From positions 1-17,044 of the forward strand of contig JAWCFL010000034.1 in the NCBI GenBank assembly GCA_038858525.1: a DNA stretch of 17,044 nucleotides. Direction: 5' to 3'. This stretch comes from Candidatus Jordarchaeales archaeon. Its GTDB lineage: Archaea; Asgardarchaeota; Jordiarchaeia; Jordiarchaeales; Freyrarchaeaceae. Under the pieces are notes generated by a model. That model saw nothing but the letters and a program-made list of their open reading frames with translations, did not search any database and had not been told where the DNA came from. Position numbers and translations under genes: made by a program. This document shows positions 1 to 16,985 of the stretch, in pieces. Every line of letters begins with the position of its first letter. Position 1 is the stretch's first letter.

Positions 1-15
1 GGTGGGGGTGGGGGG

Positions 16-327
16 GTGGAGGAGGTGAGGGATGTGTTGTTGGGTTTGTTGGAGAAGTATTCGCGGGAGAACTCCAAGATGGATTTGGTTCTTCACATTG
101 TGTGGTCGGTTGTCGAGGCGCTTATACGTGACGCTGAGGAGTGTATGGTTGAGAACGTGCTGGATGACGTGTTGTCGCTTGGATACGCTCTTAGTTTGGT
201 TTCTCAGAGGCTGAGTAGTGATGAGAAGGAGTTGCTGAGGGGGGCGGAGAGGAAGCTGATGGGGGAAGTTAAGCGGGCGGTTAAAAGATGCATGATGAAA
301 GTTGCAAGAATACCTATAAGGGCTTGA
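16..327 (+). CDS. Hypothetical helical protein whose last codons and stop lie inside CRISPR repeat 1; possibly truncated by the array
   Basis: Frame is open from the window start. It has Glu/Leu/Val-rich helical composition and G-rich codons like other + strand genes here. Codons 301-327 (VARIPIRA*) come from the repeat. Start is uncertain (GTG 16, 25 or 34; GAGGTG at 22-27). Confidence 0.55.
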   Translation: MEEVRDVLLGLLEKYSRENSKMDLVLHIVWSVVEALIRDAEECMVENVLDDVLSLGYALSLVSQRLSSDEKELLRGAERKLMGEVKRAVKRCMMKVARIPIRA

Positions 328-531
328 AACCCGCTGAGCGAGGCGATTGGGGAGGGGAGGGAGGGGGTTGCAAGAATACCTATAAGGGCTTGAAACAACA
401 TTTTGCTTGATGAGCGCACGTTGGTCCGCAACGGTTGCAAGAATACCTATAAGGGCTTGAAACCCACGCTGCTGCCAGTACTGTTTCGCGGCGTTGACGA
501 GTTGCAAGAATTACCTATAAGGGCTTGAAAT
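301..531 (+). CRISPR. CRISPR array, 4 repeats / 3 spacers, repeat GTTGCAAGAATACCTATAAGGGCTTGAAAC (30 bp)
   Basis: Identical repeats at 301-330, 367-396 and 434-463. A variant terminal repeat at 501-531 has one extra T and a 3' C>T change. Unique spacers are 36, 37 and 37 bp. The GTTGCAA...TTGAAAC ends are typical of archaeal repeats and give + orientation. Confidence 0.95.
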
Positions 532-1073
532 GTTTCGTCTTGATGGAGCATTGTTCGCTAGCCTGTTGAGTTCTGCGTTACCGTGTTTTGTGGAGTGGAT
601 GATGTGCTTGAAATAGCTGTTAGGGAAGTGATTGCTATGTGTAGGCTTGAAGTGACTGACTGCCATGTCTTAATTGATGTTTGCTAGGTCTCCTATGTTC
701 GCCTTGCTTATTGTTATGGTTAACCCAAGTAATTATGCTTTGGAGGACGAAGTGTTTTCGAAGTTTAAAAGTAACATTTCGAGCAACCTGCGGGTCTCTT
801 GGTTTACGTTTTCATGTTCGGGAAAAACGGTCCATCACTCCCTAGACGTGTTTGCATTCTTTAGCAAGGCTCCTTTTCTAATCTAAATTTCCCTTTTGGG
901 ATAGTTTCATTTGGGGATAGTGTCATTTATGCTTGCCGGTTGTTTCGTGTCTATGTTTAGGTTTGGTGAGGTTATTGTGGCGTCTACTTCTTTATGCCTG
1001 ATTAGGCTCTTCGTGTCTTCTAGGTGGTCCGTCGTGTGAATCTATTTCTGGTGCCCGATTTCTAGCACCCGCC

Positions 1074-2124
1074 CTATTGTGAGGAGTATTTCTTGAAGAG
1101 GTTGATCATTCTGTCAACGTCTTCCTTGGTCTTTGCGACCTTTGACGTCCTTATGGCCTCCCTGACAGATTTCGAGTACTCTGAGACTTTTTCAGCAATG
1201 TACCTCGCCAATTCTGCGTCCATGCCTCTCCTCTTTGCAAGGTAGTTTGTCGTTATTTTCAAAAATTCATCCTTTATGTACTCTTTGAGGTGGAAGACCT
1301 GAAACCTGTCCAAAAGCTCACGTGGAAGTTTGTCGATCCTGTTGCATGCGGCTATAACTGAGCATGGGAACTTCTCAACAGCATGCATCTTGTGCTTTGT
1401 TACTATGATGCGTTGGGACTCCATGAGTGTTAGGAGGACGCTTAAGTCCTTCGGGTCGTCTATTTTCTCCAACTCGTCAATCAGTAGGATGCGGGGCTTT
1501 TCTTCAATTAACATGTCCCTGATGCCGACCTTGCTGCTAGTTCCTGCAGTTATAAATTTGGTGTTGGGAAGCCTTTCGATCTCCATCAGGAAGAGTGTCT
1601 TGGCTGTTCCTGGGGGGCCGACTAGCAGCACGTGGAACGGCTCATCTAGAGTGACGATCTTCAGCATAAAACTCTTCAAGTCGTCGTAGCCCTCTATGAC
1701 GTCAAACATGTCAGGAGGCACGCCACTCTCCACTTTCTCTGTAACGCTTTCATCGACTTGCTGTATGCTCTCATACTCCTCTATTTCCTTCATTATTCCC
1801 TCGCGATCCACGAGCAGGTACGACTTCCTCCTGCCGCCAAACGCCCTAACGATGCCTGCTATCAACAGTTTCTCCACAATCCTCCAGTGTACACCCACGT
1901 CCTTCCAGTCCCACAATGGTTTCAATCCAAGTTTTGATAACGTTTCGTTTTTCGCCCGAAGAATCTCGTCAACCTCAGATTGGTCGTAAACAGTGTTTCA
2001 ATCCAAGTTTTGATAACGTTTCGTTTTTCGCTATCTCCTGCTCCTCCTTTATTTCGTAATTTATTATTTTCTTCAACGCTTCCCTAATTTCGTCATTAGA
2101 TATTATGCTATACTTACTCGTCAT
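1074..2124 (-). pseudogene. wHTH + AAA+ ATPase (RuvB-like/MGE-type), 324 aa when reconstructed; interrupted by a 76-bp repeat+spacer insertion
   Basis: ATG at 2124 with SD GAGGTG reads MTSKYSIISNDEIREALKKIINYEIKEEQEIAKNETLSKLGLK and then stops in the insert (TGA 1975-1977). The downstream frame 1925-1074 has Walker A GPPGTAKT, Walker B LLIDELEK, sensor-1 AACN and Arg-finger LLDRF. Removing 76 bp fuses the two in frame (...SKLGLKPLWDWKDVGV...). Confidence 0.9.
1919..2031 (-). CRISPR. Single-spacer mini-array, repeat GCGAAAAACGAAACGTTATCAAAACTTGGATTGAAAC (37 bp) x2 with a 39-bp spacer
   Basis: Exact 37-bp direct repeats at 1919-1955 and 1995-2031 flank a unique 39-bp segment at 1956-1994. The minus-strand 3' end is the canonical ATTGAAAC. 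Confidence 0.8.
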
Positions 2125-2527
2125 CACTCACCTCACCACATTATTGATCGACTATATTCTTCATTGATGTTTCTTTTATCGCATCTCCGCCGATATTCTA
2201 TTTAGTACAGGAAGATTTGTTCCCATGCCTATTTAACGGATTCCTTTGGCGGTATGTTTAGGGTTAAATGGGGGTCGTTTGAAGACGTTTTTGTTGTTTT
2301 CCTTCAAGTCCCCGGGTACTAAACGCAAATATAGTTTTTCTTTCTTGACTCAGAGCTGGGTGAGTGTTTTTCTGGGGGGATTTGTCGTGTTTGGGTGTTG
2401 TTTTCGGAGTTCGAGGGGCATCCAGTCCCCCAGTGGAGCTTTCACCGCTCCCCCGGAGGTATTTCCTAGGATTTCAGTCCTCGCACCTCCAAAACACGCT
2501 TAATTCACCATTCACCACACAGCCTTT

Positions 2528-2571
2528 CAGAGTAACAGCTAACTGATGGCAGAGTGACAGCTAACTAATGG
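2528..2571. repeat. 22-bp tandem duplication (CAGAGT[A/G]ACAGCTAACT[G/A]ATGG), 2 mismatches
   Basis: Copies at 2528-2549 and 2550-2571, read directly. Confidence 0.75.
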
Positions 2572-2601
2572 AGCACCCACTATCCGGGAAACAGTAAAGG
2601 C

Positions 2602-2707
2602 AAGTGAGAACTGATCCGTGCATGTGCATCAGCCACTTCCTTTATCTTTTTCGGGATATTGATGTTCACCATTAGTGTAAGTGAGACCTGATCTGTGCGT
2701 GTGCGTC
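2602..2707. repeat. 29-bp imperfect direct repeat pair, period 77 bp
   Basis: AAGTGAGAACTGATCCGTGCATGTGCATC (2602-2630) vs AAGTGAGACCTGATCTGTGCGTGTGCGTC (2679-2707), 4 mismatches. Confidence 0.7.
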
Positions 2708-2944
2708 GACTACAAGCTTCAATCCTTCCGTTATACTTTTATCGGTGAACGGTGACGAAAACCCATTTCTCAGAGCCCGCAAAGCCCGCCACCAGCAAAC
2801 CATTAACCAGCGGACATAAACCACCCTATCCACCGGGGGAGGGGCGCGAACAAGTCAAGGCACTTAGCATGCAGTCCTCACAAAAAACATCAAAAAATAA
2901 CATTCAAAGAAGCAAAAAGGGGGGGATGACTGGTCAACTCAAAG

Positions 2945-3747
2945 CTAGCGGGGATGGGAGGAAGGAGGAGCAGGGCCTGACGGAGGAACAGACGGAGGAA
3001 CAGCAGGTCGAGGAACAGTGGGTTGAGAAACACCATACCTCTGAAAGGTACTATAGAAAGCCACTGCCCAAAGTATCGAAGACACAAACATTAGTATTAA
3101 TAGGACGACACTAACAATGTTTAGGATTCCTGCTGCTAGAGTGACTGAGGGAGACCCTGTATCTTCTCTTACTGTGGTTCCAGCGATGCCAGAAGTGAGC
3201 AAGAATGCACCTAGAGCTGTGAGTGAGAAAAACAAGGGCCAAATCGTTGGTTGAGTGACGCGCACTAGAAAACCTAGAAAAGATGGACTCTGTTCTACTG
3301 ATAATAACATGAATATATATATGGAACCGGTCCTGTTAATCTCTCTATTAATATTAAAATATATAGTATGAGGGTCACTGGGGAGACAATAAGACCAATG
3401 ATGAATGTGACCATTCCAGAGGTTCTTCCTGTGGCTTTATGGATGCCGTAGAAGCCTAAGCTAATCAGAAGGACGTGCAGAAACAGGAAAATCCCCGTCA
3501 TCGCTGAAACAATCCCAAAAGTCGGCCAAACAGATTCAACGACAAAGAGGTAGTTAAAGAAGAGTAACATTGCCATGGAGTAAGGTATCGGACGTATTGC
3601 AATAAACGGGGATGATAATAAATAGGCGATATAATCACCTATTGAATATAAATTGCTGAACAAGATTATGTGGTAGACGAATATTGGAAAGGCTATTGTT
3701 CCGATTATTCCTCCGGCCATCCCCATTAGTAGCATTGCTCTGCTCAC
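2945..3747 (-). pseudogene. Polytopic membrane protein with Pro-rich C-tail, split into two ORFs (3747-3295 and 3310-2945) by a frameshift at an (AT)5 tract
   Basis: Both ORFs are strongly hydrophobic and overlap at (AT)5, 3313-3322. Deleting one AT unit gives a continuous ~266-aa protein (...LTGPVPYIFMLLSVEQ...). They could alternatively be two genes. Confidence 0.65.
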
Positions 3748-3791
3748 TTTTTCTCTCCCCTTTAATTTTTTAGGAAAAAAATGTGTTTTTT

Positions 3792-3806
3792 TATTTAAGT
3801 TTTTTG
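3792..3806 (-). promoter_or_regulatory. Putative archaeal BRE-TATA promoter for the membrane-protein gene
   Basis: Minus strand reads CAAAAAA-CTTAAATA about 45 bp upstream of the GTG at 3747. Confidence 0.5.
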
Positions 3807-4244
3807 TAGTGGGTTGTTTGGTCTTGTTGGGGTTGTAGGGTGATTTTCGTTTAGCTGCGTGGGTGTGTTGGAGGCTTAAAGCGTTGTTTGAGCTAAAAGT
3901 GGATGCTGATCCTGCTTTCGAGAAGAGGGGGGAAGGCGATCCTGGCTTGCATTAAGAGGTGCCTCTTATCTGTCCCGTATTGTATAATCAGTAGTGATGG
4001 TGGATGGGGGTGAGGAGTTATGTTTCTATGTGGTTGGTGTTGACGAGTACGTTTGCGACTCGTAGAGGGGTCTTTATGGGAGGGGTTTCTAGGTTTGTGT
4101 TTTTGTTTTTCTTTGTGGGGTGGGGTTTGCTGGCGCTTGTTGTGTGGGTTTCGTGTGTTGCTGCTGTTGCGTGGGTTTTGGTGGTTATGTTTTTATTTTT
4201 GTTTTGTGTTGTTTTTTTGGAAGTTTATTTCTGGTGGTGTTGTT

Positions 4245-5684
4245 TTGGGGCGGACTGGGTCGACTTATAGGGCTAGGTTGGTTATGGTTTTTCATGCTTG
4301 TTTGGAGCTTCAGTCTGTTGATGGTGAGGTTCGTGTTGGTAGGCTTGCTGAGAGGGTTGATTTGACTGAGAGGGCTGTGAAGGATTATCTTGATGACCTT
4401 TCGAGTTTGGGTGTTTTGTCTTATAGGGGGGCGGGGAGGTATGTTGTTAATGAGGGTTTTGTTAAGAGTCTTGGTGAGGACTTGCTTTTTGAGCCCTCGT
4501 CTAGTGTTGTTATTGATGAGGGCTTGCTGCATGCTGGTTTGGTTGGTGTTGAGCCTGTTTCGAGGAAGGTTCAGCGTGTTTTGAGGAAGCTTGAGTTTCC
4601 CTTGGTTTCGGGGGAGGAGGTGAGGGAGCGGCTGGTTGCTGCGAGGGTTGGGGACTACGTTTTTCCGGTTAGGCTTTTGGGGGATGGGCTTGTTCTTCCG
4701 AGGTTTGCCGGTGACGTTCTTCTTGATGGTGTTTGGGTGGCTGGTTCTGCTCCTGCTCATAGTGTTCATAACTTTGTTCTTGGTGATTTTTCCGTGTTGA
4801 CTGTTGTTTGTCTGAGTGTTGGTGGCTTCGTGGGGCTGTTTGAGGGTGGTGTTCTTGATCATGAGAGGTCGGTTAGGAGGAGGATTCCTGACCTCCACTC
4901 CTTTAGGGGTGTGGAGCCCTTCGAGGAGGGGGACCCGTTCTTCGAGTTCTCGACGGACTTTCCGGAGCTTCTTCAGGCGGGGAGGAGTATTGCTGCGAGG
5001 TATCTTAGGGAGATTCAGCATTACAGGATGGGGATAAGGCTGATCGAGGAGTTTGGCGATAAGTTTGACTTCTACTTCCGGCTTGGGTCGCTTGTGCCTC
5101 ACGGCTTCCTCGTTGCCTCCAAGGTTCTGGTGAAGCTTAGGGATAAGTGTAACAGGTTGTTTTACGACCTGGTTAGGGTTGCAGGCGAGAAGGGGGTTAC
5201 GCTGGTAGGCGTTAGCCCCGTATCTATGGACAACGTTTTCTTCAGGGCGTGCAGCCAGGTGCTCGGCAAGATTCCGGGGAAGACGAACGACCTTAACTTT
5301 CTCTCCATTGTTTTGAGGGATAGGGACTCGACGTGCCTGATTGAGAGGGGGGAAGAGAAGGGGAAGCCTCCCGTGAGGGACGTCTACGAGTTTTACCTCT
5401 CGCGGAAGGGAATCGTGACGAAGTACGAGTTTGTGTCCAGGGATCCGCTGAGCGACCATAAGAGGGTGGCTGACGTAGCTTACACCCTGACCACGGCGCC
5501 TCTGAGGGAGCGGGAGGAGGCTGGGCCAAGCGTGGTCTCGGTGGCGAGGCAGGAGGCGGCGTTCAACCTTTCATCCCTCGAAAGGTCGGTTGAGCTAAGC
5601 CTCAGGGCGGGCTTCCTAGGAATGCTGGAGAAGATCCAGAGGAGGAGGGATGAGGAGAGGGCGAAGGAGGCGTTTGGAGGGTGA
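4245..5684 (+). CDS. N-terminal winged-HTH fused to a NurA-like (RNase H fold) domain, apparently lacking most catalytic residues
   Basis: Likely start is TTG 4245 after SD GGTGG; the track's 4053 start adds only low-complexity GT-rich sequence. HTH segment: VRVGRLAERVDLTERAVKDYLDDLSSLGVLSY. NurA-like blocks: WVAGS, REIQH, FRLGSL, LVGVS, NDLNFLSIVL, YEFYL...KYEF, GPSVVSVAR. It lies directly upstream of herA, the usual NurA partner. Confidence 0.75.
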   Translation: MGRTGSTYRARLVMVFHACLELQSVDGEVRVGRLAERVDLTERAVKDYLDDLSSLGVLSYRGAGRYVVNEGFVKSLGEDLLFEPSSSVVIDEGLLHAGLVGVEPVSRKVQRVLRKLEFPLVSGEEVRERLVAARVGDYVFPVRLLGDGLVLPRFAGDVLLDGVWVAGSAPAHSVHNFVLGDFSVLTVVCLSVGGFVGLFEGGVLDHERSVRRRIPDLHSFRGVEPFEEGDPFFEFSTDFPELLQAGRSIAARYLREIQHYRMGIRLIEEFGDKFDFYFRLGSLVPHGFLVASKVLVKLRDKCNRLFYDLVRVAGEKGVTLVGVSPVSMDNVFFRACSQVLGKIPGKTNDLNFLSIVLRDRDSTCLIERGEEKGKPPVRDVYEFYLSRKGIVTKYEFVSRDPLSDHKRVADVAYTLTTAPLREREEAGPSVVSVARQEAAFNLSSLERSVELSLRAGFLGMLEKIQRRRDEERAKEAFGG

Positions 5685-5689
5685 GGAGT

Positions 5690-7177
5690 ATGGGCGAGCG
5701 AGCCTTCGAGCTGGGAACGATAATATGTGAGGGCCAGACGCCTAACCACCTCGCCTTCTCTTTTCAGGTGGCTAGGGACGTCGAGGTTAAGGTTGGAGAG
5801 TACGTTGAGGTCCCGCTGGGCTTGAGCGTGATGGTTGGGCGCGTCTACTCGATTCACACTTATAACGAGTACTTTTCCAGCCCGGAGTTTCTCCAGTTCC
5901 ACCTCGAGGATGGGGTTCCGGTTCAGGCCCGCTTCCCGACGCGGATAGGAAGGTGGAGGGTGGCGAGGGTGAGGGTTGTTGGGGTGCTGCGGGGGGACAG
6001 GTTGCTGCCTCCCGAGGTTCCTCCAGAGCCGGGGGACACGGTTTACAGGGCTAAGCCCGAGCTTTTGGAGTCCTTCCTGAAGTTTAGGCCGGACGGGGTG
6101 TTTCTCGGGGTCATGAGGGGGAACAATGACGTTAAGGTTTTCCTGAACCCTGAGCTGCTTCTTCCATACCACGTGGCTGTTCTGGGGGCTACTGGGAGCG
6201 GAAAGTCCTATGCTGTAGGGGTGATCGTGGAGGAGCTTCTGGAGAAGGGGATGCCTGTGGTCGTCGTCGACCCTCACGGGGAGTACAGGTTTTTCTCGCA
6301 GAGGAACGATAACCCGGAGGAGGTTGAGAGGGCCAGGAGGATGGGGGTGACGCCCAGGGGTTTCCCGACCATGGTTTACTCGCTTGGGGAGGACGGGGAC
6401 AGGAAGCTGTCCATAAGCATAGATGACCTTAACCCCTACGCTCTGGCCGAGGTCTGCGACCTGAGCGACGCGCAGTCAGACCTCCTTTACCTGGCGTTCA
6501 GGAAGCTTGGCGGTGGAGGTTACGGGCTGGATGAGCTTGTCGGTGCGGTCAAGGCGGCGGCTAGGGAGTGGGGGTTTCAGAAGAACACGTTGACGGCGGT
6601 CCTCAGGAAGATACAGGCGCTGAACGAGTTCGTTTTTTTCGGGAAGAGTATAAGTGTGGGTGACCTCGTCAAGCCAGGCCACTTGTCTGTTCTAGACCTG
6701 AGTGGGGGGGTGGATGAGGAGATTAGGAGGACTGTTGTTGGAGTGGTTTTAGAGAGGATGTTTAACGCTAGGAGGAGGGGGGAGATTCCTCCAGTGGTGG
6801 TGGTCGTCGAGGAAAGCCACAGGTTCGCCCCTCAGGGGGTGAGGAGCTACTGTGGCTCGGTGCTGAGGAGGATCGCGAGGGAGGGGAGAAAGTTCGGGGT
6901 GACGCTTTGCCTGACCAGCCAGAGGGTTGCGGGGCTAGATAAGGACGTCCTGACGCAGTGTGGAACGAAGATCATCCTACGCATAGAGGGAGCCTACGAC
7001 ATAGAGTACCTCAAGCCGATCTTAGACTACGCCAGTGCTGATGAAGCTGAGAGGATACCTCTCCTACCTACGGGGACCGCCATGGTTACCGGAATGGCGA
7101 CGAGGACGCCGATTCTGGTGGATGTGAGGCCGAGAAAGACGAAGCACGGGGGAGGACACCAGGCGTTCTGGAGATAG
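5690..7177 (+). CDS. herA: HerA-family ATPase/helicase (HAS barrel + FtsK/HerA motor)
   Basis: N-terminal HAS-barrel-like region, Walker A HVAVLGATGSGKS, VVDPHGEY, Walker B VVVEESHRFAP, and AREGRKFG...TSQR. ATG 5690 follows SD GAGGAG, 5 nt after the NurA-like stop. Confidence 0.93.
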   Translation: MGERAFELGTIICEGQTPNHLAFSFQVARDVEVKVGEYVEVPLGLSVMVGRVYSIHTYNEYFSSPEFLQFHLEDGVPVQARFPTRIGRWRVARVRVVGVLRGDRLLPPEVPPEPGDTVYRAKPELLESFLKFRPDGVFLGVMRGNNDVKVFLNPELLLPYHVAVLGATGSGKSYAVGVIVEELLEKGMPVVVVDPHGEYRFFSQRNDNPEEVERARRMGVTPRGFPTMVYSLGEDGDRKLSISIDDLNPYALAEVCDLSDAQSDLLYLAFRKLGGGGYGLDELVGAVKAAAREWGFQKNTLTAVLRKIQALNEFVFFGKSISVGDLVKPGHLSVLDLSGGVDEEIRRTVVGVVLERMFNARRRGEIPPVVVVVEESHRFAPQGVRSYCGSVLRRIAREGRKFGVTLCLTSQRVAGLDKDVLTQCGTKIILRIEGAYDIEYLKPILDYASADEAERIPLLPTGTAMVTGMATRTPILVDVRPRKTKHGGGHQAFWR

Positions 7178-7369
7178 GAGCAGGAAGGACGTTAAGCGGA
7201 TAACGGGTCTGACGGGGTGCTGGTTCTCGAAAAAAGGGTTCTTTCGTGATGAACGCTGGGGTGGCTTCAACCAGCATCTCCACTTTTCACGCCTCGCGTT
7301 GTTGGAACGAAAGGGTCATTTATTCGTTCTGCTCATAGAGTGATTGTCCTTTTCGTGGTGGGCGGGATT

Positions 7370-8197
7370 GTGCCTTTGGGTTTGGTTGTGAAGGTTTACG
7401 CTTTGAACTCTGGGGGAGTGAAGCGCTTCTCAGGTCACCTTGTTAGAGGAGGGCTACTGGGATTTTTCAGCAGAGTTGACCCTGATCTCGCCGGTGCGCT
7501 TCATGCACCGGACCAGCTTAGGCCTTACAGTGTTTCTCCCATTTTTCCATTGGGGGAAAAGAGGATCCACGGAGACCTTTTACATGTTAAGACGGGGGAC
7601 GAGTTCCAGTTTCGCTTAGGATTCCTCGTGGATGACATCGGAAAGAGGCTACTCGAGCGGCTTTTCGACTTAAAGGTTAAGCTGGGAGAGGTAGAGTTCT
7701 CGCTGGTCGAAGTCAACCTGAGAAAGAAGAACTACGACGAGTTCGTTAAGGACGTGAACGTAAGCGACAGGTTTAGAGTGTTTTTCAGGACGCCGACGCA
7801 GCTCTCAGTGCGGGGCGTCGACTTCCCCTTCTTGTTCCCTGACCCACGCTACGTTTACCCCAGTATTGCGAGGCTCTGGAACGCCTTCGCCCCCGAGTAC
7901 GTTAGAGTCGACGTTGACGAGCTTTACAGGTGGGTTTCGGACAACGTTTACGTGCGCAACTACTCCCTCAGGACGGTGAACGTGACGATGGGGAAGGAGA
8001 GGAGGGTGGCGGGCTTCACGGGATACGCGGACTTCTACATGAAGAGCACCGACGGTTACGCTTCATGGGTCACGATCCTCTCAGAGTACGCCACATACTC
8101 AAACGTCGGAGTGAAGAGGACGGGGGGAATGGGCGTGGTGGACGTCGAGCCCCCAAAAAAGGGAAAAAGCGAAGCCGACTCCCCCCAGGATGCGTGA
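7370..8197 (+). CDS. cas6: CRISPR precursor RNA endoribonuclease Cas6
   Basis: Motifs GHLVRG, ALH...RPYSVSP, FRTPT, FPDP...SIARLWNAF and GFTG, plus the C-terminal Gly-rich loop NVGVKRTGGMG. Likely start is GTG 7370 (track start 7340). Confidence 0.93.
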   Translation: MPLGLVVKVYALNSGGVKRFSGHLVRGGLLGFFSRVDPDLAGALHAPDQLRPYSVSPIFPLGEKRIHGDLLHVKTGDEFQFRLGFLVDDIGKRLLERLFDLKVKLGEVEFSLVEVNLRKKNYDEFVKDVNVSDRFRVFFRTPTQLSVRGVDFPFLFPDPRYVYPSIARLWNAFAPEYVRVDVDELYRWVSDNVYVRNYSLRTVNVTMGKERRVAGFTGYADFYMKSTDGYASWVTILSEYATYSNVGVKRTGGMGVVDVEPPKKGKSEADSPQDA

Positions 8198-8277
8198 CTG
8201 GTTCTTGATGTTCAAAGCCACGGTGCAGTAGCCTGTGCGGCGAAAATTACCGTGAAGAGAGCCACGAGCTTCCACAC

Positions 8278-8385
8278 TTATCAGGGTTACTATCTCTCGA
8301 TTTAATTTGTAGCCGATTGAGGATTAGGGGTAAATACCGATGAACTTAAGTATCAGGGTTGTTGTCTCTCGATTTAATTTGTAGC
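8278..8385 (-). CRISPR. Candidate degenerate single-spacer mini-array, repeat ~GCTACAAATTAAATCGAGAGACAACAACCCTGATAC
   Basis: 35-bp direct repeats at 8279-8313 and 8351-8385 (3 mismatches) are separated by 37 unique bp. Minus-strand ends GCTACAA.../...TGATAC resemble GTTGCAA.../...TGAAAC. The unit begins about 80 bp after the cas6 stop. Confidence 0.5.
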
Positions 8386-8565
8386 GCTCGTCAAGTTTCC
8401 GCCCTCGCTCGACCCCTCCTTCAATAAGCCTTCTGGAAACTCTCAGTTGGTGCTTATTCTGGAGGTCCCGCGTTTTCCGGGCGCGAGAAGCCGTTACGCC
8501 ACACCTCGAAGACCCAACACGCTTCGAAGCAATCAAAGAAACACCCCGGGAACACTAACCATTGA

Positions 8566-9155
8566 AGCGCCGAAGCGCGAAGCCTGGGAGGATATCAAAG
8601 CCCTACAAGACAACTTCAACAAGTTGTACGAGGAGCAGGTTAGGCTCAGGGGGACTTTAGAAGCATGCTTGCTAGGGTTGATGCTTTGGAGAGGAATGTT
8701 GCTGAGCTGAGTGCGGGGCAAAAGAGGCTTGATGTGAAGTTTAATGGTCTTAGGGGAAGTATGCTTGCTGGTTTCGATTCTCTTATGAGTCGATTCTCTT
8801 AGGAGGTTTGCGGGTGTTACCTTTGAGGAGTTTGTGAGGGAGATGTTGAGCGGTTCTCTTGTTGGAATGAATGTTCTGCCTGAAGGAGAGCGCTTGGAGA
8901 GACGGGTGCTTGATGAACCTTTTTACGAGGACCCTTTGATGGTTGGAGAAGTGACGGCGCACGCCGAGAGCGGCGAGGAAGTCGATAAGCTTCTTGGAAG
9001 GGCTAGGGTTGTCGAGGAGAAGTATGGAAGGGGGCCCATGTTGTTCCTTGTGATTCTGACGGCGATGAGGGAGGCGGCTAGGGATAAGAGATCTCTCCAG
9101 GCAACATAAAATAGAGTTAATTTTTGGGAGGAGGTTTAACCCGGGTGGGATGTGA
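8566..9155 (+). pseudogene. Degraded coiled-coil + PD-(D/E)XK-like protein (DUF3782-type archaeal family)
   Basis: Stitched frames read WEDIKALQDNFNKLYEEQVRLR / DFRSMLARVDALERNVAEL...AGFDSL / RRFAGVTFEEFVREML...EDPLMVGEVTAHAESGEEVDKLLGRARVVEEKYGRGPMLFLVILTA / IRDLSRQHKIELIFGR. Frameshifts are at ~8650 (G5), 8774-8801 (12-bp duplication) and ~9083. The family is recognised from memory of the pattern. Confidence 0.7.
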
Positions 9156-9223
9156 CCGTTAAACAGTGTTTTTTGAAGAATTTCTCGCTTTAGCGAGAAA
9201 AATAGGGGGTTTTGTAGGGGGAA

Positions 9224-11578
9224 TTATTGTAGTTGTGCTATCATTTGTTTGGCTGCGTTGACGAACTTGTCTGCTTCGGCGCAATCCACGTTAACCATTT
9301 GGATTTTCTGCGGGTTTAGTCCTAACTGCTTCAGCATCTCTCTGAGGAGAGCTACTCTTGCGCCCATCGCTCTTACTCCTTTGTCGAAGTGGCATCTTCT
9401 TTCGAAGCAGCCGACTATTAGTACTCCATCTACTCCGTTCGTCAGAGCCTTGAGTATTTCTTGCGGGTCGATGACCGCTGTGCACGGCACCTCCATCACT
9501 CTGACGTTCGCTGGGTATTCGAGTCCAAGCATGCCCGCGTAGTCTATGGCGGAGTAGCCGCACTCGTAACACGCTATCGCCACGATGTTCGGTTTTGTCC
9601 CGTCATAGGTTAGCCCCTCGATTGTCGCGGTGATCTGCTCGTCAGTGTGGTGCCTTAACTGTATGGCCTCTGCGGGGCAGGCTCCGGCGCACAGTCCACA
9701 CCCGAAGCACTTCGCCTCCTTAACCATTGCCGCTTCGCCCTCAACGACCGATATCGCCTTGAAGGGGCAAGCCCACTCGCAGACTAGGCACTTTCCGCAT
9801 GCATACGCGTCGACGACTGCGGTGAGGAGAGGCTTCTCGATCTTCCCCCTCTTCATTAACCTGGCAGCCATTATCGCTGCAGCTGAGGCGTGGGAGACGC
9901 TGTAGGGTATGTCCATTGGCGTCATCGCTGCTCCCGCTACGAAGACGCCTGCAACGTTCGTCTCGGCGGGCCTAACTTTCCTGTCAAGTGTTTCGATGTA
10001 GCCGTCTGGTCCAAGCTTGACGCCGAGTATCCTTGCCAGCTCCTGGGTTCCCTTGGATGGAACCATGGACATTGAGAGGGCGACCATATCCGCCTTGATC
10101 CTGTTGTACTCGCCGGTCAGCGTATTCTCGACGTCCACAACAAGCTCGCCCTCCTCTCCGGGGACGATGCACGCCGGCTTACCCCTCACGAAGGTGACGC
10201 CCAGCTCCCTTGCCTCCCTGTAGTACTCCTCGTATCTTGACCCAACAGGCCTCATGTCCATGTAGGCTATGACGACATCCACTTCGGGGAACCTTCTCTT
10301 GATCATGACCGCGTGCTTGAGGGCTATCATGCAGCATATGTTTGAGCAGTAGAAGTTGTGCTTCTCATCCCTCGACCCGGCGCACTGTATCATCACTATT
10401 CTCTTGACTGGGCGCCCGTCGGACCTCCTCACCAGCCTGCCGCCAGTCGGGCCGGTTATGTCGAGCAGCCTTGCGAGGTCCACTTGGGTGACGACGTCGG
10501 GGATCTTACCGTAACCGTAGTCCACAAGCCTTCTCGGGTCGTACTCCTCGAACCCCGTCGCCACAATTATTGTCCCAGCGTTGATCACGACTTCTTCCTC
10601 TTTCTCGTCTAGGTTTATGGCGTTGACAGGGCAGGCATCCACACACTTCGCGCACTCCTTAAACTTGCAATTTTCCGGGTCTATCACGTATATGGGTGGT
10701 ATGGCTTGGGGGAACGGGAGGTATATCGCCTTTCTCTCGCTCAACCCAAGGTTGAACTCGTCGGGGACGCTTACCGGGCAGACTTCGGCGCAGGCACCAC
10801 AGTTAATGCAGGCGTCGCTCACATACCTCGGCTTCTTCCTGACGACCACGCTGAAGTTGCCCACCTCACCAACCACATTGACTACTTCTGCGTTCGTCAT
10901 CACCTGTATTCGTGGGTCAACCTCCAACGCAGCCCTGTAAATGCACTTCCTAGTGGAGTCCCCTCCGAGTGCTGGGCACGCAGTTGTCCGGACGCAGAGA
11001 GAACAGTCATCTGTCGGGAAGACTGTTCCAAGCTTGAGGCATAGTCCTCCAAGCGTAGGCTGCCTCTCAACTATCGTGACGTCGAAGCCCAGCTCAGCCA
11101 GCTCCTGCGCCGCCGTTATGCCGCTTATACCCCCACCTATGACGAGCGCCCTCTGATGTATTGGGACAGGCTTGACCGGGACCTCCTCAAGCTTCTCAGC
11201 CCTGTTGGCTGCAGCGTTTATGAGCGCCTTCGCCTTCCCCGTCGCCTCCTTTGGCTGGCTTGGGTGAGCCCAAGCGCACTGCTCCCTTATGTTTGCCACG
11301 ACGAGGCTGTACCTGCTCAGCCCGGCAGCCTCGACGCTTCTCGCCAGCTCCTCCCCCTTAACCTTGGGGGAGCACGCCGCAACCACTACGCGGTCCACGC
11401 CTGCCTTTCTGGTTTTCTCCCTCAGCTCCCTCAGTCCTGACTCGCCGCAGAGGTCGCTGTGCCTCACGACGAAGGCGAACCTTCCACTCTTCTCAGCCCA
11501 TGAGGTCAGCTCGTCAAAGTTAAGGTTCTTGGTTAGGGTTCCACCGCAGTCACAAATGAAGAGCCCAATTTTCGCCAA
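9224..11578 (-). CDS. hdrA: Heterodisulfide reductase subunit A fused to a C-terminal MvhD (methyl-viologen hydrogenase delta) domain
   Basis: Motifs: GLFICDCG, VAACSP, NIREQCAWAH, FAD motif LVIGGGISG, FPTDDCSLC, ferredoxin CxxCxxCxxxCP repeats, MIQCAGSRD, YCSNICC, and MvhD motifs IACYECGY / VPC / GC...CHF. Likely start is TTG 11578 with SD GGAGG (track start 11599). Confidence 0.95.
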   Translation of the reverse strand: MAKIGLFICDCGGTLTKNLNFDELTSWAEKSGRFAFVVRHSDLCGESGLRELREKTRKAGVDRVVVAACSPKVKGEELARSVEAAGLSRYSLVVANIREQCAWAHPSQPKEATGKAKALINAAANRAEKLEEVPVKPVPIHQRALVIGGGISGITAAQELAELGFDVTIVERQPTLGGLCLKLGTVFPTDDCSLCVRTTACPALGGDSTRKCIYRAALEVDPRIQVMTNAEVVNVVGEVGNFSVVVRKKPRYVSDACINCGACAEVCPVSVPDEFNLGLSERKAIYLPFPQAIPPIYVIDPENCKFKECAKCVDACPVNAINLDEKEEEVVINAGTIIVATGFEEYDPRRLVDYGYGKIPDVVTQVDLARLLDITGPTGGRLVRRSDGRPVKRIVMIQCAGSRDEKHNFYCSNICCMIALKHAVMIKRRFPEVDVVIAYMDMRPVGSRYEEYYREARELGVTFVRGKPACIVPGEEGELVVDVENTLTGEYNRIKADMVALSMSMVPSKGTQELARILGVKLGPDGYIETLDRKVRPAETNVAGVFVAGAAMTPMDIPYSVSHASAAAIMAARLMKRGKIEKPLLTAVVDAYACGKCLVCEWACPFKAISVVEGEAAMVKEAKCFGCGLCAGACPAEAIQLRHHTDEQITATIEGLTYDGTKPNIVAIACYECGYSAIDYAGMLGLEYPANVRVMEVPCTAVIDPQEILKALTNGVDGVLIVGCFERRCHFDKGVRAMGARVALLREMLKQLGLNPQKIQMVNVDCAEADKFVNAAKQMIAQLQ

Positions 11579-11595
11579 AAATGACTCCTCCTTTT

Positions 11596-12495
11596 TCACT
11601 TTCCTCCGTTGAGCTTTGCTAGTAGCGGGTCAACCTTGGTTCTGTTAGACTTAAGCTCAAGCTCGTCCGGCGTCATACCCATCGCGAGCCCTAGGAGCTG
11701 CGTGTAGTAGAGCACAGGTATGTTGTAGTCTTTCCCGTATGTCTTATTGATGATCATCTGTCTAACGTCGTACTGCCTGAAGCAGACAGGGCAGAGTACG
11801 GCCATGCAGTCTGCTTTAGCCTGCGTCATGTAGTGGAGCTTCTCCATGACCATTTTGACGTTCGTCGCCTCGTCTAGGTTGCCGACGCCACACCCACAGC
11901 AGAGGAATTTTCTGAAGTAGTCGACGCTCTCAGCTCCCGTCGCCTCAACGAGGGCGTCCAGCAGGACGGGGTTGAATGGGTCGTCCACTTGGAGCAGGTG
12001 GCTGGGCCTGAGAATGTGGCACCCGTAGTGGGCCGCAACCTTCACGCCCTTAAGTGGCCTCTCAACATAGCTTCTAAGCTTTGCTGGTCCAACATCCTCG
12101 TAAAGGACCTGGGCGAAGTGCTTAACCTCAACTCTACCCTTGTACTCCCTCCCGATCTTTGAGAGTGCCTCGGCAACCCTGCTTCTCAGCTTCGCGTCGT
12201 GCTCAAGCAGCACCTTGGCTTCTTTAAGTGTCTCGAAGCATCCGTTGCAGAACGCGATGATGTCGAGCCCGGCTTCTTCGGCAACGCAAAGGTTTCTGGC
12301 TGCCAGCGTCACCCACGTCGTCATGTCCAGTCCAGGGGTTCCGATGGGCTCAGGGCAGCACGAGAAACCGGCGATGTCCTTAACTTCAACGTCGAGCTTG
12401 CCGAAAACTTTCCTTATTGATATTTCGAGGTGCGGCAGAAGGTTCGGTATGACGCACCCCAAAAACATGGCGTAACCACTACTGCTGCTTGCCAC
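11596..12495 (-). CDS. hdrB: Heterodisulfide reductase subunit B
   Basis: Two CCG domains (FLGC, FSCCPEP, FCNGC, HYGCH, LCCGCG, LCPVC). Lies between hdrC and hdrA. Confidence 0.95.
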   Translation of the reverse strand: MASSSSGYAMFLGCVIPNLLPHLEISIRKVFGKLDVEVKDIAGFSCCPEPIGTPGLDMTTWVTLAARNLCVAEEAGLDIIAFCNGCFETLKEAKVLLEHDAKLRSRVAEALSKIGREYKGRVEVKHFAQVLYEDVGPAKLRSYVERPLKGVKVAAHYGCHILRPSHLLQVDDPFNPVLLDALVEATGAESVDYFRKFLCCGCGVGNLDEATNVKMVMEKLHYMTQAKADCMAVLCPVCFRQYDVRQMIINKTYGKDYNIPVLYYTQLLGLAMGMTPDELELKSNRTKVDPLLAKLNGGK

Positions 12496-13024
12496 CGCTA
12501 CTCTCCTCCTTAACTGCTTTCTCCTCCTTGGCGGTCAACTTGACGAAGCCTAAGTGCTCGAGCAAAGCTCTAATCTCGGCTGGGTCAGCCGTTTTAAGCT
12601 CGGGGAGCCCCATCTTAGCTCTCCTGGAAATCGTCGCTTTTGATGGAGCATTAACCAGCCCGGTCTCGATCAGGACTTTTGCCTCAGCCCTTAAGTGCTC
12701 CGGGAAGTTTCCCGCCTTCGTTGCAAGGTTCCTCAGCGTGGCAAGTAGCTCGCTCACCCTAACACCCTGAGGGCAGACCTCGGTGCAGTTATGGCACACC
12801 GTGCACAACCATATGTTGGGGTCATGGATGAGTTCATCCTTCTTACCCGTCAGCATGCCCTCTATGAGTCTCCTCGGGTTATACTTCGAGTTGTATCTAA
12901 ACACGGGACAAATCCCTGAGCACGTCGCGCACTGGTAGCAGAAGTTAATTGTTTCTCCTTCCTCGTGGAGCTCCGCCAGCTCCTTCCTGAAGCGGGTGTT
13001 TATCTCATGATACGTTTCCACCAT
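12479..13024 (-). CDS. hdrC: Heterodisulfide reductase subunit C
   Basis: CYQCATCSGICP and WLCTVCHNCTEVCPQGV 2x[4Fe-4S] motifs. Overlaps the hdrB start. Confidence 0.95.
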   Translation of the reverse strand: MVETYHEINTRFRKELAELHEEGETINFCYQCATCSGICPVFRYNSKYNPRRLIEGMLTGKKDELIHDPNIWLCTVCHNCTEVCPQGVRVSELLATLRNLATKAGNFPEHLRAEAKVLIETGLVNAPSKATISRRAKMGLPELKTADPAEIRALLEHLGFVKLTAKEEKAVKEESSGGKQQ

Positions 13025-13308
13025 TAGCTATCATCCCTTCTTTTTGAATAATCTAAGCGGGGGAGAATTAAGTCTCGCCCGTTGTTACAGGACAGCTAAG
13101 TTTTAAAAATTTTTACTCTCTCAAATGATGAAAACCACATGCAGCACTGTGAAGCGTCCAGAAGGCCCCTGACCCTCCAGTGAATTCGCATCGATTTTTG
13201 ACCATACCTCTTTCGGTTTGCGGCTCCCTCTAACCTGTTTGAAAAGAAGAAAACGGTTTTATGTTGCTCCTCGCTAAATGTGAGGAGGGCTGTGTTGGAG
13301 GGTTCATC

Positions 13309-14091
13309 TTGGGGAGGATTCGAGTAGTGGATTTGAGCGTCCCAATAGAACCTGCACCAAGCGAGTTTCTCCCTCCCGAAGTGATCCATAAGGGTCACAG
13401 GGAAGGAGCAGCCGTCATGAGCGCCCTTTTCGGGTGTAGAGAGGAAGAGTTGCCTGACGGGTTAGGGTGGGCTGACGATACGCTCAACAACCTTTCAACG
13501 CACCACGGTACGCATCTCGACGCCCCGTGGCATTTCGCCCCGGTGAGTGAGGGAAGACCGGCGAAGACTATCGACGAGGTTCCACTCGAGTGGTGCTACG
13601 GTGACGGGGTAATACTGGACATGAGGCATAAGCCGCCCGGCTCGGGAGTAACCGTGGACGACCTAAGGCAGGCACTGGAAAAAATAGGTTACCAGTTGAA
13701 GTCCGGCGACATAGTCCTCATAATGACCGGCGCGGACAAGCTTTGGGGGAAACGAGAGTACCTTAACGCTGGCTGCGGGATGACGCGGGAGGCAACGCTT
13801 TGGCTCATAGAGCAGGGTGTAAGAGTCATGGGGACTGATGCTTGGGGCTGGGACAAGCCCTTCTGGGCAATCAAGGAGGAGTATGAAAAAACGGGTGACG
13901 CCGGCGTAATCTGGGAGGCACACTACGCGGCAAGAGAGAAAGAGTACGTTCACGTGGAGAAGCTCGCCAACCTAGATTACCTGTACGACGTTCTCAGAAG
14001 GCCCTACGGCTTCAAGGTGGCATGCTTCCCTGTGAAGGTTAAGGGTGCCTCAGCAGGGTGGTGCAGGGCAGTAGCGATATTAGAAGAGTGA
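13309..14091 (+). CDS. Cyclase family metal-dependent hydrolase (kynurenine formamidase KynB-like)
   Basis: Motifs VDLSVPI, HHGTHLDAPWHF, GDIVLIMTG, GTDAWGWD, VEKLANLD, P.KVKGASAGWCRAVA. Likely start is TTG 13309 after GGAGG (track start 13261). Confidence 0.92.
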   Translation: MGRIRVVDLSVPIEPAPSEFLPPEVIHKGHREGAAVMSALFGCREEELPDGLGWADDTLNNLSTHHGTHLDAPWHFAPVSEGRPAKTIDEVPLEWCYGDGVILDMRHKPPGSGVTVDDLRQALEKIGYQLKSGDIVLIMTGADKLWGKREYLNAGCGMTREATLWLIEQGVRVMGTDAWGWDKPFWAIKEEYEKTGDAGVIWEAHYAAREKEYVHVEKLANLDYLYDVLRRPYGFKVACFPVKVKGASAGWCRAVAILEE

Positions 14092-14216
14092 CTCCTTCAC
14101 CAGGTGACAATACTTCACGTTAACTATTTATAATGTTCAAGTGCTCATCGCCCCCGAGTTGCAGGGGATCGGGAAAATAAAGGGATCGGGAAAACAAGTT
14201 GCGGCGAGAATTCGTG

Positions 14217-15521
14217 TTAGGTGATTTTTGTTTCTGCCCATGAGTCCACCATGGCCTTTGGCCATCCTATACCTATAAGTTTTTTAGCGGTTTCCTTAGA
14301 GATAACGCCGTTCTTCATTCTCTCGTAGACTGCCTCTATTGGGACTAGGAAGGGCTTTTTGTCATTCCAATCCCACCCTATGAAAAGCTCGTCTTCGTCA
14401 TCAATGTAGAGGCATACTGCGCGGAGCTTCTGCCTGTGCTTCTCCGTGTAGTCCTTAACCCACGCTGGAACGTTTAGTGCTGTGATGCTTGCTCCTCCTC
14501 TCTCGTCTTCAGCCATCAGTTCCTCTGGCAGGATCACGTCGGTGAGGTGCGTGTGGCCATAGACTATTCTCAGTTTCTCGGCGTCGATGACCTTGCCCTT
14601 GGAGAACCTTTTCCACCATGCACGGAGCCCCTTCACGGATGCTTCACGGTTATACCTGGTTCCGACCAGTTTGTTCCAAACCTTTCTCCCGTAAAGGTAG
14701 AAGATGCGGGGACCGCCCAAAATGGCCCAGAGAAGTATCAAGGCGCCATTGCCGAGGACTGCGAGGACTGGAAGCAACACGCTCCAGAAGCCTAGGCTCA
14801 AACCTAGAAAGCTGAGCGGGAGAAGTTGTGGGAGGGGGACGGAGAACATCAACTGACTTAGGCCAGCAGCGAGAGAGAAGTGCTGCGTCACAGCGTAGTT
14901 TAGTGCTCCTGCAATTATGCCGAGGATGAGTAGCCCGATAAAGAGGTCGCCATACTTGCCGAACGCTACAGCTCCTGAACGGATTCCGGGCAAAAGCTTC
15001 CAAGGCTGAAACCTGAAAATTCTGTCAAACTGGTAGCCGTGAACAAACAGGTAATCTCTGTCACCCCTCTTAAGCGTCGTAACCTTTCCACTCTTTCTTT
15101 CCTGCTCCGGGTAGCAGTCCTCGATTATCGTTAAGGTTTGCTCACCTGAAGGGTAGACTCCCACAAGCGACTTCAAGTCGTAGTCGTGGTTGCCTAAAAG
15201 ATAAATCTTCTCGCAGCTCATTTTCTCAAGCAAATCGAAAATCGGCCTACTACAGTACTCTATGGCTCGGTCAGAGGCATCCCACAGCTCTAGAATATCC
15301 CCGATCAAAACCAACTTCTCAGGAGGCTTCAGAACCTTCTCTCTACGCCCACCACCCCAAGGCCCCAACGCGATGCTTGCCTTCTCACCTCTCTCTAGGC
15401 GAATAAGCCAGCTCAAAAACTGGCCTAGCTTCTCCGGCTCACAAACTATACCCTTCCTCTTTCCTCCACCGACCAGACCAAGATGGCAATCTGAAACGAC
15501 GATTACGCTACCATCACCCAT
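14217..15521 (-). CDS. Calcineurin-like metallophosphoesterase with an inserted transmembrane region
   Basis: All five motifs are present (VSDCHLG, GDILELW, LGNHD, FVHG, GHTH). A ~90-aa hydrophobic stretch lies between motifs 4 and 5. Confidence 0.88.
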   Translation of the reverse strand: MGDGSVIVVSDCHLGLVGGGKRKGIVCEPEKLGQFLSWLIRLERGEKASIALGPWGGGRREKVLKPPEKLVLIGDILELWDASDRAIEYCSRPIFDLLEKMSCEKIYLLGNHDYDLKSLVGVYPSGEQTLTIIEDCYPEQERKSGKVTTLKRGDRDYLFVHGYQFDRIFRFQPWKLLPGIRSGAVAFGKYGDLFIGLLILGIIAGALNYAVTQHFSLAAGLSQLMFSVPLPQLLPLSFLGLSLGFWSVLLPVLAVLGNGALILLWAILGGPRIFYLYGRKVWNKLVGTRYNREASVKGLRAWWKRFSKGKVIDAEKLRIVYGHTHLTDVILPEELMAEDERGGASITALNVPAWVKDYTEKHRQKLRAVCLYIDDEDELFIGWDWNDKKPFLVPIEAVYERMKNGVISKETAKKLIGIGWPKAMVDSWAETKIT

Positions 15522-15582
15522 TCAGTTGCCTCCCCCTAAAAGCTCGTCTAGACCTTACCTAGACTCTATAATGACACGCCGT

Positions 15583-15596
15583 ATATTAAATTTCCC
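15583..15596 (-). promoter_or_regulatory. Putative BRE-TATA promoter for the metallophosphoesterase gene
   Basis: Minus strand reads GGGAAA-TTTAATAT about 60 bp upstream of ATG 15521. Confidence 0.45.
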
Positions 15597-15909
15597 TAAA
15601 TAAGCGAACATTAATTGCCATCATGTTCTAACTTTAAGTTACCGGTGAAAGCTTGGAATAATAGCGTGATTCTGCTTCTTTTTCTACTCCGCCCTGGCGT
15701 CTGCTTTTATGCCATATATGGAAGTCAACACTTATGAACGGTCGCTTCGTCAAGACCTTTTATCGGCTACTCAAGGGGGGCTTCCGCATGGATCCTCTAC
15801 ACCTAGAGGTTGCGTGAAACATGCGTTCTTGTTGGTGGCAAAGTCACTGATCTTCGAAGGCTCTTCCCTCTTTCATGATGAGTCCAGTAAGTCTTTCTAA
15901 TAAAAATTC

Positions 15910-15926
15910 AAAAAAAGGTTTAAATA
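15910..15926 (+). promoter_or_regulatory. Putative BRE-TATA promoter for the last two genes
   Basis: AAAAAAAGG-TTTAAATA about 54 bp upstream of ATG 15980. Confidence 0.55.
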
Positions 15927-15979
15927 CTCTTTTAAAATTAAAAATAGGGGAAATACTTATTGTTTGGGAGGCTGAGGGA

Positions 15980-16351
15980 ATGATGTTCGACGTGCCTCAA
16001 CTGCTAGTTTACTTCGCATGCATAGGGCTGTCGCTTCTCATGGCGGTAGTAGGATCGGTGCTCGGGCTGGGAGAAGTCACAGCGAAGGGAAAAGTTACAA
16101 CTAATTCTCCAGTGGAGATAATTAAGGGAATAGGCCCCGGGAGGGCTAAGCTGCTCAAGGAGCACGGCGTGAAAACTGTCGGCGACCTTCTGAACGCTGA
16201 CCCAAAGAAGCTTGGCAGTGAAATAAAAGGGGTCTCGTCCGACCAAATAATGAAGTGGCAGGAAGAAGCTAGAGAAGCAATGAAAGGAGTTAAGAAAGAG
16301 GAAAAGAAGGAAGCTAAGAAGGAAGCTACAAGAAGGAAAGGGGGGAAGTAA
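15980..16351 (+). CDS. Membrane-anchored helix-hairpin-helix protein (DUF4332-like) with a Lys/Glu-rich tail
   Basis: N-terminal hydrophobic helix, then IKGIGPGRAKLLKEHGVKTVGDLLNAD...IMKWQEEA. Likely start is ATG 15980 after GAGG (track start 15875). Confidence 0.8.
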   Translation: MMFDVPQLLVYFACIGLSLLMAVVGSVLGLGEVTAKGKVTTNSPVEIIKGIGPGRAKLLKEHGVKTVGDLLNADPKKLGSEIKGVSSDQIMKWQEEAREAMKGVKKEEKKEAKKEATRRKGGK

Positions 16352-16978
16352 ATGCAGAAGTATACTCACATAATTGTTGGGGCGACTGCAGCCGCCCTCG
16401 TGATAGCCTTCGTATCACCTGAGCTAAAGGGCACTCTTCTCTCTCAGTTCCAGAACTTGATGAACCTTTCAAGGTATGGCTCCACATGGCAGGTTCAGCT
16501 TGCTCTTTCAGGCTCCGTCCCGGCGCTTGTCGCAGGCGGCTTCTTCGGCATATTACCCGACCTAGACCAGATTCTGAAAAGGGAGAAGGTGATGCATAGG
16601 AGCGGTCTCCTCCACAGCATTCTTACGCTCATATGGCTACCACTAGTAATAGGCTTCATAGTTCCACAGTACTTTGCTGTGGCGACGGCGGCTATCTTCT
16701 CTCACTGGTTCATCGACTCATTTAACCCGACTGGCGTGAGAACCCTGCCATACATTCTGCCGCGGAAACAGGAGAGCTTGAAGGACTTTCTTTGGAACCA
16801 TGAGAGAGACCTGCGCATCGCTAAACTGCGCTACGACAACCACGCGGTGAACGTTGTCCTCTGCGGCATATGCACTTTGGTAATAGCGTACTTCGCCCTC
16901 TCCTGGCAGGCTGAGGGAGGAGGCATACTTGGAAGTCTGCTGCCTCACATATCGCAGCTTCTAAACGTAACCCTCTAA
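16352..16978 (+). CDS. Membrane metal-dependent hydrolase (YdjM/DUF457 family)
   Basis: Motifs THIIVG, LPDLD, HRSGLLHS and SHWFIDSFNPTGV with intervening TM helices. It starts immediately after the upstream stop. Confidence 0.88.
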   Translation: MQKYTHIIVGATAAALVIAFVSPELKGTLLSQFQNLMNLSRYGSTWQVQLALSGSVPALVAGGFFGILPDLDQILKREKVMHRSGLLHSILTLIWLPLVIGFIVPQYFAVATAAIFSHWFIDSFNPTGVRTLPYILPRKQESLKDFLWNHERDLRIAKLRYDNHAVNVVLCGICTLVIAYFALSWQAEGGGILGSLLPHISQLLNVTL

Positions 16979-16985
16979 CATCCCA

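Follow-up and report, generated by a model that had tools for sequence, protein, structure and literature searches.

A divergent NurA homologue with an added winged helix and replaced catalytic residues, encoded with its own HerA near CRISPR-Cas genes in Asgard archaea

Here, we describe a gene of an Asgard archaeon that encodes a true but very divergent homologue of the nuclease NurA, to which an N-terminal winged helix has been added and from which the canonical set of catalytic residues has been lost. The gene lies in a 17,044-nt stretch of DNA from Candidatus Jordarchaeales archaeon (GenBank assembly GCA_038858525.1, contig JAWCFL010000034.1, positions 1 to 17,044 of the forward strand), which was analysed as a whole and is called the window below. 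It occupies positions 4245..5684 on the forward strand, is under purifying selection and is followed directly by a gene for an intact HerA-family ATPase, in a neighbourhood of clustered regularly interspaced short palindromic repeat (CRISPR) arrays and CRISPR-associated (cas) genes. We refer to the gene and its product as dNurA, which on balance is probably a nuclease-dead NurA paralogue that serves as a cap or loader for its own HerA motor within a CRISPR-associated accessory module. All coordinates are positions in the window on the forward strand, and residue numbers are those of the dNurA protein of 479 amino acids.

The dNurA protein has no match in Pfam, NCBIfam or PADLOC. It falls below the gathering score of the NurA family PF09376, and a genome-wide PF09376 search returned three other loci and not 4245-5684; PDB sequence searches with the protein and with its family profile found no NurA, only weak matches to winged helix-turn-helix (wHTH) domains of the SmtB type. 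The relationship to NurA comes from structure and from profile comparison. An AlphaFold2 model was built on 18 homologues and has a confident core, with a mean predicted local distance difference test (pLDDT) of 65. Foldseek against the PDB had S. solfataricus NurA as its best match (2ygk_A, E 2.2e-6), ahead of NurA of T. kodakarensis and D. radiodurans, TM1739, Argonaute PIWI and EndoV. An exhaustive VIA-align comparison again had this protein at the top (2ygk_B, Z 14.9), with 251 residues aligned between model residues 98-451 and chain residues 1-334, and the top match in the ESM Atlas was a NurA cluster (template modelling (TM) score 0.52/0.64, 285 residues aligned, root-mean-square deviation (rmsd) 3.5). 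Searched against 1.84 billion representatives, the dNurA family profile returned 60 proteins (39 below 1e-10), the weakest matches being Pfam-positive NurA proteins. Finally, hhalign joined an alignment of 37 dNurA family members to 13 Pfam-positive NurAs over 275 columns with 99.7% probability (E 2.7e-25). Given that structure searches, profile hits and hhalign agree, dNurA is genuinely homologous to NurA, although very divergent, and carries a winged helix in addition.

The NurA-like part is an RNase H-fold body of residues ~98-451 (4536..5597), which aligns with the whole of 2ygk_B and matches the NurA cluster of the Atlas; in the VIA alignment the model also covers the N- and C-terminal extensions that build the dimer of S. 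solfataricus NurA (SsoNurA). The wHTH comprises residues ~5-83 (4257..4493) and is supported by structural matches, secondary structure and conservation: in VIA it superposes on winged helices of IclR, DtxR, MarR and Z-alpha at Z ~10 and rmsd 1.5-3. Residues 42-54 form its third, recognition-type helix, in which R43, Y48 and L52 are near-invariant across the family. A preliminary description of the window had proposed a NurA-like protein with an N-terminal HTH that is missing on housekeeping NurA. Structure prediction and profile comparison confirm both parts, and the three canonical NurAs of the same genome are without an HTH. As a separate observation, a feature search of the atlas pointed to cyanobacterial clusters of 660-720 amino acids with a wHTH (score 0.9).

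The active site of P. furiosus NurA (PfNurA) consists of Asp51, Glu105, Asp126 and His411; Asp51 binds both Mn2+ ions, and mutation of the beta1 aspartate abolishes activity (PMC3300031). In SsoNurA the corresponding set is D58, E116 and D133, plus K202 and Y298 (PMC3326311). The profile alignment shows that all six conserved active-site positions are replaced in dNurA. At beta1, the canonical (V/I)DG(S/G) is represented by A166-G167-S168-A169 (4740..4751, placed by hhalign and the family columns), and H259 (5019..5021) stands opposite the catalytic glutamate of alpha1 in hhalign. The catalytic aspartate of beta4 has become L280 (5082..5084), so that the canonical DGS-x-x-PH reads LGSLVPH, and hhalign places P325-V326 (5217..5222) at the canonical V-x-(K/E)-D site after beta5. 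What remains of motif III is E425-R435 (E-A-GPSVVSVAR, 5517..5549), with E425 in place of the tyrosine and R435 in place of the histidine or aspartate. By contrast, VDG, E, DG(S/P) and AH are all present in the genome's three canonical NurA genes.

The preliminary description had assigned such replacements by eye. Its codon coordinates (A166 at 4740-4742, L280 at 5082-5084, P325 at 5217-5219 and R435 at 5547-5549) are all correct and its assignments of L280, P325 and R435 agree with the profile alignment, but hhalign puts the beta1 aspartate at A169 rather than at A166. In both registers the column is without an aspartate in all 37 family members. The substitutions are conserved in homologues and hence do not represent a decaying allele. 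The claim that only the glutamate of an R-E motif had survived is doubtful: the alpha1 glutamate aligns with H259, and E256, one turn off that position, is a lysine in 4 of the 18 closer homologues. H259 is itself invariant in these 18 and variable in distant ones. The beta4 aspartate is kept in 3/37 family members, and an Asp, Glu or His of motif III is kept in about six distant ones; judged from the alignment, these residues look like relics that confirm the ancestry.

Other positions are conserved within the dNurA family. E234 (4944..4946) is near-invariant and belongs to the insertion PF(Y/F)E-x-x-(T/S)(D/E)(F/Y)PELL before alpha1, which is specific to the family and absent from canonical NurA; it is modelled as a low-confidence loop (pLDDT <50 for residues 227-242). 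D329-N330 and D349, which lie at helix N-termini in the model, are also conserved, as are the motifs TCLI, EKGKP and YEFY.

The gene is intact and its start is well defined. The N-terminal peptide MGRTGSTYRARL is kept in 17 homologues, down to 35% identity, and because the homologues begin with this same peptide, the TTG at 4245 is the real start. A longer in-frame extension to 4053 was rejected as non-coding on the same grounds. The reading frame had been described as otherwise intact, which holds for both the frame and its conserved N terminus. Among 400 Asgard genomes, 21 contain a full-length orthologue, as do 13 of 85 genera, always in single copy, including the source genome, and the lineages include Jordarchaeia/Freyarchaeia, Baldrarchaeia and Borrarchaeum. 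This patchy distribution is as expected of an accessory gene. Together, 18 close and about 40 cluster-level full-length homologues share many invariant columns, and one or two stops in the reading frame are seen only in two distant matches. Between the window and a hot-spring strain variant, 10 listed sites differ in the dNurA gene (seven synonymous, three conservative, no indel), compared with 24 substitutions and nine indels in the 400 bp upstream. Hence, dNurA is under purifying selection.

The cognate HerA-family ATPase gene (5681..7177) overlaps the dNurA stop by 4 bases. Its product has a DUF87 match in Pfam (1e-31) and a HAS-barrel, and the motifs Walker A (GATGSGKS), Walker B (VVEE) and REGRKFG are intact and invariant in 11 orthologues. 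The third gene of the module is cas6 (7340..8197; Pfam CRISPR_Cas6 1e-13, TIGR01877 2e-18), and a small CRISPR array of four 30-nt repeats, the last of them degenerate, lies 3.7 kb upstream of dNurA (301..531). We compared 19 independent dNurA loci, using 10-kb flanks and a limited query set. A herA gene directly follows dNurA in all 19, over a range of 23-81% dNurA identity, and CRISPR arrays or cas genes are found within 10 kb in 14. The gene after herA is cas6 in five loci (the window, L050, L006, L011 and L056), and in L054 cas6 lies ~1.6 kb beyond herA; across the cas6 loci, dNurA identity to the window copy is 23-81%. Four loci (L008/9, L016, L017 and L058) carry a DUF2797-cas1(-cas4) adaptation cassette, and DUF2797 alone is present at the edge of L015. 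Type I-A genes occur in L006 and type I-B genes in L009. No CARF, csm6 or cas10 was found among the annotated neighbours in these flanks with this query set. Large arrays abut the dNurA-HerA pair in L008, L015, L050 and L056, and what look like two-repeat arrays at the contig ends of L010, L018 and L020 have probably been cut short there. In L054, a putative mini-array that separates herA from cas6 was discarded, being a 54-nt coding tandem repeat and not CRISPR.

Three canonical NurA-HerA pairs, all with intact motifs, are encoded elsewhere in the same genome (contigs C28, C10 and C56). Because these ordinary pairs are present, dNurA-HerA is an extra, specialised pair. The nearest canonical NurA matches (P0058 and P0061) stand alone in housekeeping neighbourhoods and were set aside as uninformative on origin. 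In one RNA library, contigs cover parts of dNurA, herA and cas6 at 88-98% likeness, a weak hint that the genes of a relative are expressed, as DNA carry-over is possible.

If dNurA is the cap or loader of its HerA, its place would be the HAS-barrel face of the HerA hexamer from the overlapping gene, where it would form a dimer or ring similar to the NurA dimer of the repair complex. From this position it would load or thread DNA and activate the ATP-driven translocation or unwinding by HerA without cutting, and the two winged helices may add recognition of DNA or of a partner. The pair would function as a CRISPR accessory module, which frequently shares an operon with cas6 and is frequently found next to arrays or to DUF2797-cas1-cas4. 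The step served could be adaptation, array transcription or processing with Cas6, or maintenance. A predicted complex of HerA with dNurA residues 95-479 supports neither side, with a median interaction prediction score from aligned errors (ipSAE) of 0.31 compared with a mark of 0.32.

Several observations weigh against the cap-or-loader reading. The quality of the dNurA model is moderate at the mean pLDDT given above, and the loop with E234 is poorly modelled. Acidic residues from elsewhere could fill the metal sites, namely the near-invariant E234, D329 and the invariant D161 before beta1. The recognition-type helix is rather acidic (D47, D50 and D51) and may bind a protein instead of DNA. 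In addition, 5 of the 19 loci have no CRISPR array or cas gene in reach, three of these being on short contigs.

Among the alternatives, the one that survives best, although we consider it unlikely, is that dNurA is mainly a transcription factor. The wHTH would bind operators of its own or of cas operons, the dead NurA body would serve in dimerisation or effector sensing, and HerA would be a regulated target or co-regulator. The N-terminal domain is indeed closest to the heads of IclR, DtxR and MarR type repressors, and wHTH regulators such as Csa3 are common in CRISPR loci, with Csa3 seen in L006. A promoter-proximal block (4176..4244, forward strand) with A/T-rich TATA-like boxes and a Shine-Dalgarno-like GGTGGTG, covering the likely transcription start, is shared, in alignments, with the locus of the same genus and in part with that of another genus. 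It also has no differences in the strain variant, in which the upstream variation is confined to 3774-4175. However, the block occurs once in the genome: allowing up to 2-3 mismatches, no second copy was found, including before cas1, cas6 and the other cas genes, and an operator shared by dNurA and cas1 was therefore rejected. Moreover, conservation of the NurA body equals that of the winged helix, and a strict link to herA, often with overlapping frames, is usual for proteins that belong to a single complex. The preliminary description had interpreted the protein as a sensor, scaffold or transcriptional regulator. Its premises of a NurA fold, an added wHTH and replaced catalytic residues have held, but in place of a sensor or regulator the evidence favours a HerA partner (19/19 loci) near CRISPR-Cas.

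It is quite unlikely that the pair is a stand-alone defence or mobile-element module, similar to Sir2-HerA and DUF4297-HerA, which merely co-localises with CRISPR in defence islands. The patchy distribution, the TnpB, HepT-like and PIN/VapB neighbours in L004, L010 and L011, and the match of this HerA to the PADLOC HerA models would fit such a module. Against this, the pair has no enzymatic effector, as dNurA has neither a catalytic motif nor a PADLOC match; cas6 adjoins herA in the same orientation across deep branches (22-81% identity) in several loci, and in several loci arrays directly abut the pair.

The conserved acidic and histidine residues, several of them invariant or nearly so, raise the question of whether dNurA is still a nuclease that uses a relocated, non-canonical site built from E234, H259, H286 and D329. 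E234 lies on a flexible loop beside alpha1, reminiscent of the glutamate finger of Argonaute, and a few distant members keep the beta4 aspartate or an Asp, Glu or His of motif III. We find this very unlikely, given that the aspartate missing in 37/37 members is the one that binds both metals in PfNurA and is essential there (PMC3300031). D329-N330 and D349 lie at helix N-termini, and canonical NurA likewise conserves D349 and the PH of PHG, so these residues look structural, and H259 is not conserved in distant members. That dNurA is a decaying pseudogene copy of nurA, for which nothing speaks beyond the loss of catalytic residues, is refuted by the intact full-length orthologues in 21 genomes with their many invariant columns and by strain differences that are mostly synonymous, with the RNA-library contigs over all three genes as weak additional evidence.

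A more specific version of the cap-or-loader reading is a long shot: dNurA-HerA may be a nuclease-free DNA (or R-loop) motor dedicated to CRISPR arrays. In this version the target of the winged helices would be a Cas protein or the DNA of the array or leader, and the dead channel would hold a strand while HerA opens or clears the DNA for integration by Cas1 or for synthesis of precursor CRISPR RNA and its processing by Cas6. If true, the pair would be a new factor, close to the core set, for CRISPR adaptation or expression in Asgard archaea and would provide a function for the long-unexplained CRISPR-associated NurA-HerA pairs, which have been known since 2012 without one. That the NurA fold, the partner HerA and the CRISPR setting persist in a natural family which has given up the nuclease implies that it is motor activation or DNA threading, not cutting, that the CRISPR context needs. 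With dNurA, Asgard genomes gain a fifth NurA-fold paralogue, one without annotation; the copies counted in a 2026 review of NurA in Asgard archaea are only the annotated, catalytically intact ones (PMC13748450). The pair is small, soluble-looking and from a hot-spring thermophile, and should be tractable for biochemistry and cryo-electron microscopy.

The 5' end of the dNurA operon has an unusual base composition. Window positions 3760-4850 show an extreme G+T (keto) skew on the coding strand: G+T reaches 87% in the 190 bp before dNurA, 75% in its first 600 nt and 57% at its 3' end, and in codons 1-200 the third positions are 94% G/T and 0% A. The deviation of the island from the genome mean exceeds 5 standard deviations, and the genome has only about nine islands of this kind, others being at C33:1600-2800, C49:200-1200 and 10800-10900, and C50:10400-10600. 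Five of them each mark the 5' end of a defence operon: two belong to cas1 cassettes, one each to a Piwi-domain and an HD-domain gene, and the fifth to dNurA. Others are near thermosome and EF-1alpha genes. A weaker skew is seen in the relatives L015, L018 and L020. The pattern resembles promoter-proximal, strand-asymmetric C>T/A>G mutation.

Further features of the neighbourhood were noted along the way. The open reading frame (ORF) 16-327 continues directly into repeat 1 of the small array (301-531), and the 300 bp before this array are G+T-rich and not an A/T-rich leader. Between the array and the dNurA operon, a gene for an AAA+/MCM-like ATPase (1074-1925, minus strand) has a same-genus counterpart at the same relative position in L050 (12897-13742, 63% identity) and may belong to the same neighbourhood unit. 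Its 5' end carries an exact 37-nt direct duplication flanking a 39-nt insert (1919-2031); genome-wide there are four two-copy duplications of 37-39 nt with 74-76 nt spacing, on C15, C19, C29 and C34. Just behind cas6, at 8279-8385, lies a pair of 35-nt repeats (32/35 identical, 37-nt spacer). The pair is lineage-specific, and it was rejected as a part of the module because L050, the locus of the same genus, lacks it. Immediately before cas1(-cas4), the cassettes of L008/L009, L016, L017 and L058 and that of the own genome (L024, C33:2252-5000) have a DUF2797-like gene, which suggests an unrecognised adaptation component. Another locus of the own genome (L023, C49:1-3000) contains an array, a 500-bp G+T-rich block, an ORF of 534 amino acids without family match and an overlapping Piwi-domain ORF; the two ORFs may be a long Argonaute, split or frameshifted, beside the array. 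At 9224-13024 on the minus strand, the window encodes an HdrA-MvhD fusion (791 amino acids) followed by CCG-domain and 4Fe-4S subunits, which is ordinary heterodisulfide-reductase-like metabolism.

Known systems resemble dNurA-HerA in different respects. Bacterial Sir2-HerA and DUF4297-HerA (PMC11472057, PMC11291478) likewise combine a HerA hexamer with a partner ring from an adjacent gene in defence contexts, but their partners are an active NADase or nuclease, whereas dNurA has no recognisable catalytic site. Closer in context are the CRISPR-associated nurA-(csm6)-herA-cas6 clusters of Thermoproteales and other Crenarchaeota (Bernick 2012, PMC3396285; Shah 2019 clusters 57/58, PMC6546367), for which a role in adaptation has been proposed. 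As with dNurA, these are NurA-HerA pairs paralogous to the repair pair and located next to arrays and cas6. However, their NurAs are Pfam-positive and are not described as wHTH-fused or inactive (PMC3396285; PMC6546367), csm6/CARF genes lie between their nurA and herA, and the clusters are tied to type III, whereas the dNurA loci are from Asgard archaea and have type I-A, type I-B and adaptation genes. We found no published description of a wHTH-fused or inactive NurA. What is new here, as far as sequences can tell, is a wHTH-fused, apparently catalytically dead, Asgard form of the known CRISPR-associated NurA-HerA pairs, linked to type I and adaptation genes.

Archaeal repair NurA (PDB 2YGK, 3TAL-type PfNurA; PF09376) shares with dNurA the RNase H-like fold, the N- and C-terminal helical extensions, the motif order G-S, GS-x-x-PHG, (R/T)-x-D-x-x-(F/L)L, FY, PS-x-x-x-x-A and the direct coupling to a herA gene. 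In contrast, dNurA has no Pfam NurA match, its catalytic residues and the active-site K and Y are replaced, it adds the N-terminal winged helix and the conserved PFYEL-TDFPELL loop, and its loci have a CRISPR context without mre11/rad50 neighbours. In the repair complex, the NurA dimer caps the HerA hexamer and feeds DNA, and nuclease-dead SsoNurA D58A still activates the HerA ATPase and HerA-dependent unwinding (PMC3326311). SsoNurA D58A with HerA, in which the beta1 aspartate is gone and HerA is still activated, is a working model for a natural dead NurA, with the difference that D58A is an engineered single mutant of a repair enzyme, whereas the dNurA family has lost the whole site and gained modules.

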